From NCBI GenBank assembly GCA_031257775.1, contig JAIROA010000033.1:1321-65320 (forward strand): a DNA stretch of 64,000 nt, given 5' to 3'. Below the pieces are notes generated by a model that saw only the letters and a list, made by a program, of their open reading frames with translations, did not search any database and was not told where the DNA came from. Source of the DNA: Synergistaceae bacterium. GTDB lineage: Bacteria; Synergistota; Synergistia; Synergistales; Synergistaceae. Of the stretch, positions 60,743 to 64,000 are shown piece by piece. A program made the position numbers and the translations under genes. Position 1 is the stretch's first letter. Each line of letters opens with the position of its first letter.

Positions 60743-61024
60743 TTATTCTACGCTAAATCCACGCTCCGCATGTGACACGGGCTCGTCGCGCACGGTGACG
60801 CTCTTGACTGATGCGGCAGGAGAACCCCTGCGGCACCACTCTACCATATCGTCCACAAGGGCTTCCTCCCCCTGGAACACCGCCTCAACCATTCTGTCCG
60901 GCAGATTGCGGATCCAGCCCGAGAGCCCCAGGGAACTTGCCCGCTCATGCGCGTACCACCTGAAACCGACGCCCTGCACTCTGCCGCTTATGAGGACGCG
61001 CTTTCTGCAAATCCTGTCCGTCAT
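60743..61024 (-). CDS. acyP: acylphosphatase
   Basis: 93 aa. [41 protein letters not shown] is the acylphosphatase signature. Confidence 0.9.
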
Positions 61025-62162: not shown

Positions 62163-63458
62163 TCATATTTTCCGCTTATCAACGACGCGGACGGCTTTGC
62201 CCTCGCTTCTGGCCAGGCTGCGCGGCGCCACCAGCGTCACTTTCGGCGAAATGCCGAGCATCGCCCTCATGGCCGCCACAAGCTCGTTCTCCCTCGTAGA
62301 TATCTCCTTTATGGTGTCGGAGAACATCTCGGGTGTCAGCTCCACTAAAACCTCGAACGTATCCGTGTGATGAACCCTGTCGACCAATATCTGGTAGTTC
62401 GGCGTGAGCCCGCAGTTCAAAAGCACCGTCTCTATCTGCGACGGAAAGACGTTGACGCCCCTGATTATGAGCATGTCGTCCGTCCTGCCCATCAGCCTCG
62501 ACATTTTAACAAGCGTCCTTCCGCAGGAGCATGGCTTCCGGCTCAATACGCAGATGTCGCGCGTCCTGTACCTCAAAAGAGGGAATGCCTTCTTCGTGAT
62601 GCAGGTAAAAACCAGCTCGCCCTGCTCGCCTTCAGGCAAAACCTCCCCCGTCGCCGGGTCTATTATTTCCGCTATGAAATGATCCTCGTTCACGTGCATT
62701 CCGGTCTGCTCGCAACACTCGAAGGAGACGCCGGGCCCCGATACTTCGGTCAGCCCGTAAATATCATAAGCCTTTATGCCAAGCCGCGCCTCGATGTCGC
62801 GCCGCATCTCCTCGCTCCATGCCTCCGCGCCGAAAATGCCCGCCTTTAGCTTTATCTTGCCGCGGAAGCCCTGGTCTATTATAGTCTCAGCAAGGAACGC
62901 CGCATAGGAGGGCGTGCAGCAGAGAATGGTCGCGTCGAGGTCGCACATGAACTGAATCTGCCTGTCGGTATTTCCGGAAGACATCGGCAAGGTAAGCGAG
63001 CCCACCCTGTGGGAGCCTCCGTTCAGGCCAGGCCCGCCCGTGAATAGCCCGTACCCGTAACAGACATGAACGACGTCATCCTTCCCGCCCCCAGCCGCCA
63101 CTATCGCGCGCGCGCAGCAATCCTCCCAAAGGTCGATGTCGCCCTGCGTATAAAAAGCGACGACGCGCTTGCCGGTCGTCCCGCTCGTGGACTGAATCCT
63201 GACAGCGTCAGCCAGGGGAACGGCCAAAAGCCCGTAAGGATAAGCCTCCTTCAGGTCGTCCTTCGAGAGAAGCGGCAGTTTCGGCAAGTCGTCGACGGAT
63301 TTGATATCGCCCGGTCCTACGCCCTTATCGTCCATCATCTTCCTGTAGCACCGCACGTTATCGTAAACGTGCCTGACGTTCTCGACGAGCCTATTGGACT
63401 GAAGCTCTCTCATTGATTCTCGCGTGGCGCATTCCATTTCCTCTTGATAGTAATTCAC
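62163..63458 (-). CDS. paaK: phenylacetate--CoA ligase family protein (PaaK-like)
   Basis: STSGTTGKRVV, YGLTE and a PaaK-type N-terminal region (ECATRESMRELQSNRL). GTG start 7 nt after AAGGTGGG. Confidence 0.85.
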   Translation of the reverse strand: MNYYQEEMECATRESMRELQSNRLVENVRHVYDNVRCYRKMMDDKGVGPGDIKSVDDLPKLPLLSKDDLKEAYPYGLLAVPLADAVRIQSTSGTTGKRVVAFYTQGDIDLWEDCCARAIVAAGGGKDDVVHVCYGYGLFTGGPGLNGGSHRVGSLTLPMSSGNTDRQIQFMCDLDATILCCTPSYAAFLAETIIDQGFRGKIKLKAGIFGAEAWSEEMRRDIEARLGIKAYDIYGLTEVSGPGVSFECCEQTGMHVNEDHFIAEIIDPATGEVLPEGEQGELVFTCITKKAFPLLRYRTRDICVLSRKPCSCGRTLVKMSRLMGRTDDMLIIRGVNVFPSQIETVLLNCGLTPNYQILVDRVHHTDTFEVLVELTPEMFSDTIKEISTRENELVAAMRAMLGISPKVTLVAPRSLARSEGKAVRVVDKRKI

Positions 63459-63503
63459 GATTTTCCCACCTTTTCAGTGATATTTGCGGATGCTGGCTTG
63501 GAA

Positions 63504-63539
63504 CAAAAAAACCGGGATCCTTTGCCGCAGGATCCCGGT
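63504..63539 (-). terminator. strong intrinsic terminator between a 37-codon ORF and paaK (possible attenuator)
   Basis: Minus-sense RNA reads ACCGGGAUCC-UGCGGCAAA-GGAUCCCGGU, a perfect 10-bp stem (63511-20 with 63530-39). It is followed by U7-8. The terminator ends about 45 nt upstream of the paaK start codon. Confidence 0.75.
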
Positions 63540-63589
63540 CTAACATGATGCCATACGATTTGCCGCGCTTTTTAGCCTATCTTCATCAT

Positions 63590-63703
63590 TTAAGCGGCGG
63601 CATCCGCACAGACCCCATGCATCCCGGGATCCGTGCCGGTAAAGGAGAACAGCGCTACACGAAAATCATAGGAATCGCGAACTCGCGCAATGCCAAATTT
63701 CAT
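63590..63703 (-). CDS. small ORF, 37 codons (candidate leader peptide or small protein)
   Basis: Not in the track because it is shorter than 60 aa. My translation is MKFGIARVRDSYDFRVALFSFTGTDPGMHGVCADAAA. An AAGGAGGAGG SD lies about 8 nt upstream of the ATG. It has its own promoter upstream and a terminator downstream. Confidence 0.4.
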   Translation of the reverse strand: MKFGIARVRDSYDFRVALFSFTGTDPGMHGVCADAAA

Positions 63704-63745
63704 GAGCCCTTGCCTCCTCCTTGGAATGAATTTCCGATAGCTGTC

Positions 63746-63774
63746 TTTATACAACACTCTCATCCGCTTGTCAA
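63746..63774 (-). promoter_or_regulatory. near-consensus sigma-70 promoter driving the small ORF / paaK leader
   Basis: Minus sense reads TTGACA (63774-63769), a 17-nt spacer, then TATAAA (63751-63746). Confidence 0.55.
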
Positions 63775-63859
63775 GACAGACATTCTTCCTGTGCGCCGGA
63801 CAGTGACAGTGAAATTCATGCTATTCATGCTATTGCCCTGAAAATGCCGTCTTCATCTC

Positions 63860-63889
63860 TTGCGCGAAAGCTTAAGAGTGTGATATCAT
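63860..63889 (+). promoter_or_regulatory. candidate promoter for rpsT
   Basis: TTGCGC (63860-65), an 18-nt spacer ending in TGa, then TATCAT (63884-89). Confidence 0.4.
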
Positions 63890-63921
63890 TTCACTCGTTT
63901 TGGAATAAGGAGGTGAGGATC

Positions 63922-64000
63922 ATGCCCAATAAGAAATCAGCGGCGAAGCGCGTATTAATCGCCGAAAAGAACAGGCTCTACAACCGCTACTGGAAAACTC
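63922..64000 (+). CDS. rpsT: 30S ribosomal protein S20, N-terminal fragment (runs off the window)
   Basis: Not in the track because it is truncated by the edge. AAGGAGGTGAGG SD, then ATG 63922. My translation MPNKKSAAKRVLIAEKNRLYNRYWKT matches the S20 N-terminus pattern (KSAxKR ... N). Confidence 0.85.
   Translation, partial: MPNKKSAAKRVLIAEKNRLYNRYWKT

Follow-up and report, generated by a model that had tools for sequence, protein, structure and literature searches.

We describe a leader region upstream of a paaK-like gene in a 64,000-nt stretch of a Synergistaceae bacterium genome (GenBank assembly GCA_031257775.1, contig JAIROA010000033.1, positions 1,321 to 65,320; the whole of this stretch is called "the window" here). 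The leader is likely a ribosome-mediated transcription attenuator in which translation of a short peptide senses charged tRNA-Phe or, in sister copies, tRNA-Tyr. It belongs to a family of leaders with 77 unique copies, distributed over at least 18 genera of the Synergistaceae and three other families of the order, and the reading developed below draws entirely on modeling and on comparison of these copies with one another and with the genes that they precede.

All elements of the paaK leader lie on the minus strand of the window (Table 1). An original prediction made from the letters of the window had described a near-consensus promoter (TTGACA-17-TATAAA), a very strong Shine-Dalgarno (SD) sequence, a 37-codon open reading frame (ORF), and a 10-bp terminator with a U tract just upstream of paaK, and each of these could be confirmed; the terminator stem comprises 10 to 13 bp followed by U7, and the paaK start is a GTG at 63458, 46 nt past the U tract. 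A simple promoter scanner did not list the window promoter, since its -10 hexamer ends in A and not in T; sigma-70-like promoters (9/12 or better) are nevertheless found at most 80 nt upstream of 65 of 72 homologous leaders. Between the terminator and paaK the scanner found no minus-strand promoter-like site, in agreement with the earlier view that paaK has no separate promoter in this gap. The repeat that had been noted in codons 24 to 27 of the ORF is likewise present: GGAUCCCGGG at 63632-63623 is a near copy of the terminator 3' arm and has 9 bp of complementarity to the terminator 5' arm. The GGAUCC sequence is palindromic in the window copy. Aromatic residues are encoded at five positions of the window leader ORF (F3, Y12, F14, F19, and F21).

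The folding energy of the full window leader is well below that of shuffled sequences (z = -3.1), and three elements make up its minimum free energy (MFE) structure: a helix that joins the SD to the FSF codons, a hairpin of 12 bp between two segments that we call arms A and B (63636-63625 with 63617-63606), and the terminator. In this fold the A:B hairpin sequesters the upstream GGAUCCCG copy by default. The first helix, P1, pairs the SD with UUCUCCUUU, which holds the FSF codons, both in the MFE structure and in the alifold consensus; an SD of the GGAGG type is conserved across the leader alignment, and the P1 pairs hardly vary, so covariation is uninformative either way on this helix. The A:B hairpin, the pairing of the SD with UUCUCCUUU, and the family nature of the element were all absent from the original prediction.

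Table 1. Elements of the paaK leader and the genes that follow it (window coordinates)
Feature	Position	Strand	Remarks
-35 hexamer TTGACA	63769..63774	-	Read directly
-10 hexamer TATAAA	63746..63751	-	Read directly; 17-nt spacer from the -35 hexamer
Shine-Dalgarno sequence AAGGAGGAGG of the leader ORF	63713..63722	-	Read directly and from folding; 5' strand of predicted helix P1
Leader ORF, 37 codons plus TAA	63590..63703	-	Peptide MKFGIARVRDSYDFRVALFSFTGTDPGMHGVCADAAA; ATG at 63703, TAA at 63592-63590
Regulatory codons UUC UCC UUU (F19-S20-F21)	63641..63649	-	Position invariant, immediately before arm A; double as anti-SD strand of P1
Arm A (GCACGGAUCCCG)	63625..63636	-	Default partner arm B; antiterminator partner of its 3' part, GGAUCCCGG, is arm C
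Arm B (UGGGGUCUGUGC)	63606..63617	-	Arm of the anti-antiterminator hairpin; pairs with the spacer in the antiterminator fold
Spacer segment (AAGCGCGGCAAAUCGUAUGGCAUCAUGUUAGA)	63540..63570	-	Antiterminator partner of arm B and of the A:B loop
Terminator 5' arm C (ACCGGGAUCC)	63530..63539	-	9-nt loop separates C from D
Terminator 3' arm D (GGAUCCCGG) and U7 tract	63505..63520	-	D at 63520-63512, U7 at 63511-63505
paaK-like gene, AMP-forming aryl-acetate-coenzyme A ligase, 431 aa	62163..63458	-	Regulated gene; Pfam AMP-binding, AMP-binding_C_2
ACT-domain-pair protein gene, 147 aa	61701..62144	-	18 nt after paaK; Pfam ACT_8, ACT, ACT_AHAS_ss

Relatives searched at the DNA level proved to carry the 3' half of the ORF as well, in several genera and with several copies per genome. 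The arrangement seen at paaK is present far beyond chance; a 25-nt degenerate pattern of its core matched 49 of 79 genomes of the family, representing 18 of 29 genera, while the reversed control gave 1 match. Applied to a sample of 151 genomes of the order, a covariance model that spans the SD to arm B (R1) gave matches in 34, which fall in four families, and the resulting collection holds 81 matches, 77 of which are unique. An exact-pattern scan of 185,579 species genomes returned 54 loci, with 46 in Synergistaceae or Synergistota; the carriers include Fretibacterium, Cloacibacillus, Synergistes, and Ca. Caccocola, and the closest relatives are termite-gut metagenome-assembled genomes. The 8 exact-pattern loci outside Synergistota (L113, L120, L129, L135, L136, L143, L149, and L152) are scattered, for example in Bacillus niameyensis and Aeromonas sobria, and about 4 are expected by chance. 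The genome to which the window belongs is 80% complete and carries a second leader copy outside the window (L076/L163, at G000:C90:2077-2194 on the plus strand). A search of window positions 62900-64000 against Rfam (E <= 10) gave no relevant match, either to Phe_leader (RF01859) or to other leader, riboswitch, or T-box families.

The leader ORF is maintained as a reading frame throughout the family. The aligned start is in frame with a conserved block in 77 of 77 unique copies (76 ATG and 1 GTG), and the spacing from start to block takes ten values between 48 and 75 nt, all of which are multiples of 3. Between start and block, stop codons are absent from frame 0 (0 in 1539 codons), compared with 110 and 63 in the other two frames. 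Starts were taken from the aligned start column; a rule that took the first ATG after the SD gave 5 false out-of-frame cases, all of which were resolved. Even in the loop of the A:B hairpin, a one-codon insertion or deletion preserves the frame. The encoded peptides have 29 to 48 residues, the first 13 to 20 of which show no sequence conservation, followed by the block TG(T/A)(D/G)P...G(I/V)CA, or in its full form (F/Y)S(F/Y)-TG-x-x-P...G(I/V)CA. Residues of the block change exactly at covarying base pairs (T/A, D/G, and V/I) with pairing kept, so that constraints on the RNA suffice to explain the conservation of the peptide block, and synonymous positions are as strongly conserved as others in the leader alignment.

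The terminator and the hairpin that precedes it are also family traits. An intrinsic terminator is present in 73 of the 77 unique leaders, with tracts of T4 to T8 (mostly T6 to T7); it begins 13 to 64 nt past the leader stop codon and leaves a median gap of 44 nt to the downstream start codon. The A:B hairpin is 97% paired across the alignment, compared with 22 to 53% in slid controls, and compensatory changes occur in 7 of its 10 pairs, a covariation score that none of 500 shuffles reached. When the terminator 3' arm is left out, the MFE structure becomes a long antiterminator hairpin in 69 of 72 leaders, where arm A pairs with C, the A:B loop with the bases just before C, and arm B with a conserved segment of the spacer. 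This antiterminator was defined from per-sequence folds and then scored as a named structure; on the MAFFT alignment its paired cells amount to 80.5%, a value that none of 500 shuffles reached (75.2%) and that compares with 28 to 50% in slid controls, and 19 of its 25 pairs show compensatory changes, again with a score reached by none of 500 shuffles. Its B:spacer helix contributes 9 pairs, 6 of them with compensatory changes. RNAalifold run on the alignment from A to C returned the local A:B hairpin only.

Covariation between A and C is apparent from individual copies such as CGGACUCCG with CGGAGUCCG, GAUUCCU with AGGAAUC, and GGUUCCGGCUU with AAGCCGGAAUC, and in the second clade as GCGGGUCC with GGGCCCGC; since the MAFFT alignment offsets the clades from each other by one column for A:C, pairing in clade 2 is understated when it is counted in a single register. 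Cognate A:C runs average 8.4 nt, compared with 5.1 nt for shuffled or reversed arms. Both parts of the arrangement that was first proposed at a single locus, the ORF and the repeat, are thus conserved in relatives, the former in frame in every unique copy and the latter through an A:C pairing that covaries across clades, and folding recovers both a terminator and an antiterminator as had been anticipated. We conclude that the A:B hairpin and the antiterminator are two predicted folds that exclude one another and that both covary. We also considered a pairing of B with C as an antiterminator comparable to the "2:3" hairpin of trp leaders and rejected it, since B and C share one polarity, each being complementary to A as well as to D, and could form only about 5 bp.

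Most copies carry FSF directly 5' of arm A and at a fixed distance from it. Elsewhere the site is occupied by other codon blocks: one genus has YSY (as in AVYSYPCTDP) in its second, tandem copies, other families have FFFF(F), and Thermovirga lienii has FYFYYF. Among 70 downstream genes we found 51 PaaK-family ligases of several paralog types, 7 prephenate dehydrogenases, and 4 transporters of the major facilitator superfamily (MFS), together with single cases of AroB, DAHP synthase, an EPSP-synthase-like protein (identified by eye), a Trp/Phe-dehydrogenase-like protein, an acylphosphatase, and a DUF262 protein. The regulatory codons track the downstream gene. Leaders of tyrA (7 of 7) and those of aroB, aroA, and the DAHP synthase gene have 2 to 6 Tyr codons just before FSF, while two or more Tyr codons occur in only 3 of 34 leaders of PaaK group 1 and MFS genes. 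Phe-only leaders precede PaaK group 1 and MFS genes, FSF or FFFF stands before PaaK-type ligases, and leaders with YSY only are always followed by one distinct PaaK paralog. The FSF that had been noted just before the repeat therefore acts as a block of regulatory codons, and it is replaced by YSY or FFFF(F), or joined by runs of Tyr codons, according to the gene that follows.

Several individual loci illustrate this reuse. The second leader in the genome of the window (MKSSPEANNLPVRYYTALFSFTCGDPALHGIHACRLLSV; MKSSPEANNLPVRYYTALFSF...) heads tyrA, which encodes a prephenate dehydrogenase of 281 aa, and pheA, encoding prephenate dehydratase, lies on the same strand about 5 kb downstream (G000:C90:7220-7747); the second copy probably controls a tyrA...pheA operon. 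In one genus an FSF leader and a PaaK paralog (MKLVIRNVETK...) are followed in tandem by a YSY leader and another PaaK paralog (MVHSETA...), as at L025/L077 (G051:C14:34036 and 35671) and also in G053, G054, G058, G062, and G014, a layout which suggests that Phe- and Tyr-controlled aryl-acetate ligases are kept side by side. At L079 (G169:C40:13745-13875) an SYSYVAWFYF block and a terminator precede a DUF262-type gene and not an amino acid gene, and this may be a displaced or decaying copy. At L012 (G018:C16) a leader with VYSQVTRFSF stands before a gene for a 441-aa amino acid dehydrogenase whose best NCBIfam match is the tryptophan dehydrogenase ScyB (151 bits, far below the cut-off); this enzyme may perform the step from arylpyruvate to amino acid.

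The operon of paaK and the ACT-domain gene had originally been tied to the catabolism of aromatic amino acids, a view that the co-regulation with tyrA, aro, and pheA genes argues against. Of 44 Synergistaceae genomes with a completeness of 90% or more, only 22 yielded a prephenate dehydratase (PF00800), and several genera in which it was not detected (g10, g12, g13, g14, g36, and g38) nevertheless have an FSF leader before paaK. Because of this distribution and the co-regulation of shikimate genes, the genomic record argues that the PaaK-ACT pair has a putative role in supplying Phe, that is, in aromatic amino acid supply and not in catabolism. The supply route would then be one known from rumen anaerobes, in which phenylacetyl-coenzyme A undergoes reductive carboxylation on the way to Phe. 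In the anabolic role proposed here, PaaK would catalyze the first step in a path from aryl-acetate to aryl-acetyl-coenzyme A, arylpyruvate, and finally the amino acid.

We propose the following mechanism for the window leader. Transcription would start at the TTGACA/TATAAA promoter, and a pioneer ribosome would load on the strong SD before the anti-SD UUCUCCUUU, which contains the FSF codons, has been made. In the default state, either without translation or with a ribosome that reaches the stop codon, A would fold with B into a very stable hairpin, the terminator (63539-63505) would then form, and transcription would end ahead of paaK. With ample charged tRNA the ribosome would run to the stop codon, A:B would re-form behind it, and the terminator would fire; in the absence of translation the SD would be sequestered, and termination would again be the outcome. 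When Phe-tRNA is scarce, the ribosome would stall with F21, the last regulatory codon, in its A site, and its leading edge would cover the first ~5 nt of arm A. Such a stall is predicted to remove ~13 kcal/mol from A:B and to free the 3' half of B as a toehold on which the spacer would pair with B. Capture of the terminator 5' arm by GGAUCCCGG, the 3' part of A, would complete the long antiterminator and allow read-through into paaK and the ACT gene. The same chassis with other regulatory codons would serve tyrA-aro-pheA operons, other PaaK paralogs, and an MFS transporter across Synergistota.

Modeling of the A:B hairpin is consistent with this sequence of events. If the 3' edge of the ribosome is assumed to lie 15 nt from the first base of the P-site codon, an A site on the last regulatory codon covers the first five A:B pairs, and the modeled median free energy of A:B, -21.7 kcal/mol in the free RNA, is -20.4 when the first regulatory codon occupies the A site and -8.0 when the last one does. 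For direct-path refolding into the antiterminator from the structure present before C is made, the estimated barrier falls upon stalling from a median of 10.4 to 6.9 kcal/mol, and in the window leader from 15.7 to 8.8. The terminator and antiterminator folds are nearly isoenergetic (-87.4 and -84.6 kcal/mol for the window leader; across leaders the difference has a median of -7.5), and therefore the choice between them must be kinetic. The signal is thus most likely stalling on the last regulatory codon, which in the model melts the base of A:B. The original prediction held that a ribosome sets the availability of the repeat by covering it; in our reading the switch would likewise depend on a ribosome, but not simply through covering of the repeat, whose default partner is the local A:B hairpin, a putative anti-antiterminator.

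Several points weigh against this interpretation. Equilibrium energies calculated with ribosome masks did not separate the stalled, unstalled, and stop-codon states, and the direction of the switch rests on kinetic reasoning, an assumed footprint, and the fact that the co-regulated genes are biosynthetic. In many leaders FSF provides no more than two regulatory codons, and the window copy has an early Phe codon, F3, at which a stall would not open A:B. The sequences are related, so the shuffle statistics overstate independence and are not probabilities. The conserved peptide block, moreover, could hide a role for the nascent chain, though its residue changes follow the changes in RNA pairs. 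We infer translation of the ORF, the stall position, the on-at-starvation direction, and the anabolic role of PaaK.

The RNA of this family has been catalogued before. The PBC-10 motif (Stav et al. 2019, BMC Microbiol 19:66, PMC6429828) has its type locus in Thermovirga lienii (NC_016148.1/318758-319077) and 53 to 58 examples, mostly in Synergistia and with several copies per genome; it was described with an intrinsic terminator, alternative structures, and a palindrome at the stem base, and is located upstream of "ilvH" and phenylacetate-coenzyme A ligase genes (PMC6429828). The type locus corresponds to L162 459-778 in G032:C1, where the coordinates of the neighboring genes match the published boundaries of the intergenic region exactly. 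Its contents are a leader ORF (MARAQKLQRTIYVDGFYFYYFTGVGPPQRFDA) with FYFYYF, an arm A with complementarity to the terminator 5' arm, a terminator, and a PaaK-like gene; R1 matches it at L162 556-675 (E = 8e-6), while the Rfam matches at this locus are all sub-threshold and terminator-like. The traits published for PBC-10 fit the leader family, and the ACT protein of the window matches ACT_AHAS_ss, a counterpart to the "ilvH" annotation. Our leader family therefore appears to be the PBC-10 RNA family, an assignment set by the type locus and the described traits. The motif was cautiously classed as a protein-binding candidate, and the paper's text on PBC-10 contains neither an upstream ORF (uORF) nor regulatory codons (PMC6429828), so that while the RNA motif is already catalogued, the codon-sensing reading does not feature in that text. 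PBC-10 is not in Rfam 15, and our literature search found no later paper on it.

The protein-binding proposal attached to PBC-10 is one of several alternatives to attenuation by a stalled ribosome. A dimeric protein would bind the palindromic GGAUCC near the stem base and block the terminator, with the ORF being incidental, a scheme put forward from the combination of palindrome and terminator (Stav et al. 2019, PMC6429828). The window copy does have this palindrome, but the large second clade lacks it (GCGGGUCC / GGGCCCGC), and it can be explained as a by-product of A pairing with both B and C while C pairs with D; protein binding also leaves unexplained the conservation of frame, SD, and start, the avoidance of stop codons, and the switching of Phe and Tyr codons with gene function, and we regard it as improbable. 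Some of the same evidence bears on a metabolite riboswitch that would bind Phe, Tyr, or an aryl acid directly, with the ORF as a structural by-product. A conserved structure with two alternative folds and a terminator as expression platform would suit such an RNA, which would be a new class given that Rfam has no match for it. Conservation, however, is found at helical nucleotides; the loop and the 5' region are free to vary, no conserved junction or pocket is apparent, and neither the frame conservation nor the F-to-Y codon switch at one fixed site would be expected of it; we consider a riboswitch very unlikely.

Two further alternatives take the ORF itself as their starting point. A peptide that arrests the ribosome on a free aromatic ligand, in the manner of TnaC or SpeFL, with the arrested ribosome then selecting the fold, would account for a clearly maintained ORF with a conserved block and a nearly invariant Pro five codons past the last regulatory codon. 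Yet the residues of this block change where base pairs covary, so that RNA constraints are enough, its synonymous positions are conserved as strongly as the others, and arrest by an abundant ligand would switch the genes on when that ligand is plentiful, the opposite of what tyrA, aro, and pheA would call for; a nascent-peptide sensor is accordingly an unlikely account of the family. The remaining possibility, that the unit is a stand-alone small protein gene with its own terminator and that paaK is transcribed from elsewhere, had been named as the alternative in the original prediction. The unit is indeed complete, with a promoter, SD, ORF, and terminator, but a gene on the same strand always follows at a median distance of 44 nt without a promoter-like site in the gap, genomes have several copies with unrelated N-terminal sequences, the interior of the ORF covaries with the terminator arm, and a Pfam search with the 37-aa window peptide gave no match. 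We find this explanation highly improbable, and a ribosome-mediated attenuator remains our preferred reading of the leader.

As such an attenuator, the Synergistota leader resembles the enterobacterial systems trpL, pheL/pheA, hisL, thrL, and leuL in its short translated leader with codons for the end product, its intrinsic terminator just before the first structural gene, and its exclusive antiterminator and terminator, as well as in a predicted default hairpin that would lock out the antiterminator and an SD predicted to be sequestered by a downstream segment; trpL also makes do with as few as two regulatory codons. In contrast, it has no sequence or model similarity to those leaders, its arm A lies upstream of the default partner B with both inside the ORF, and the stalled ribosome would melt only the base of A:B and not cover a whole "segment 1." It also differs in that one chassis is placed before different operons with swapped Phe and Tyr codons, and in that the genes it would regulate include PaaK-type ligases. 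The uORF-12 and uORF-13 "aromatic amino acid attenuators" of Firmicutes are similar in having F/Y-rich uORFs and terminators before genes for the shikimate pathway, Tyr and Phe biosynthesis, and transporters, whereas, compared by their description, they differ in structure and, for uORF-12, in an F/Y-rich peptide that is encoded just before stem P1 (Stav et al. 2019, PMC6429828). T-boxes provide a functional analogy only: they too place one RNA chassis with a codon-sized specificity element and a choice of antiterminator or terminator before many amino acid genes, but they bind uncharged tRNA directly and without translation, while the specificity of the Synergistota leader lies in translated codons.

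This interpretation offers a mechanism for an orphan RNA motif that had been tentatively filed as protein binding, and would extend classical attenuation to the phylum Synergistota with an unusual order of segments and with one conserved chassis reused through swapped Phe or Tyr codons. It would also tie PaaK-type ligases and their ACT partner to aromatic supply, which matters for the metabolism of gut, rumen, oral, and digester Synergistota, and would make the leader codons a sequence-based predictor of PaaK paralog specificity. A bolder version, which we advance tentatively as a possibility somewhat short of probable, is that the chassis is reprogrammable, its codon block (FSF, YSY, FFFF, or mixed F/Y) having been swapped repeatedly to retarget the switch. 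The block would then predict the PaaK substrate, with phenylacetate after FSF and 4-hydroxyphenylacetate after YSY. In the approximately 50% of sampled Synergistaceae genomes where prephenate dehydratase was not found, Phe and Tyr would come mainly or solely from regulated salvage of aryl-acetates by PaaK, reductive carboxylation, and transamination.

The window PaaK protein scored 497.5 bits against the NCBIfam PaaK equivalog TIGR02155, short of its cut-off of 646.3 bits, as did four other leader-linked PaaK paralogs (419 to 491 bits). We therefore refer to the leader-linked ligases as PaaK-like and treat their substrates as putative. The ACT-pair gene is probably in the same operon as paaK. 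An acylphosphatase gene lies near paaK and the ACT gene in the window (60743-61024, minus strand); in two other genomes (L045 and L005) an acylphosphatase-like ORF is the first after the leader, about 100 nt downstream and with a promoter-like stretch between. On the other side of the leader, the gene rpsT for ribosomal protein S20 (MPNKKSAAKRVLIAEKNRLYNRYWKT...) occupies window positions 63922-64000 on the plus strand and is divergent from the leader promoter region.

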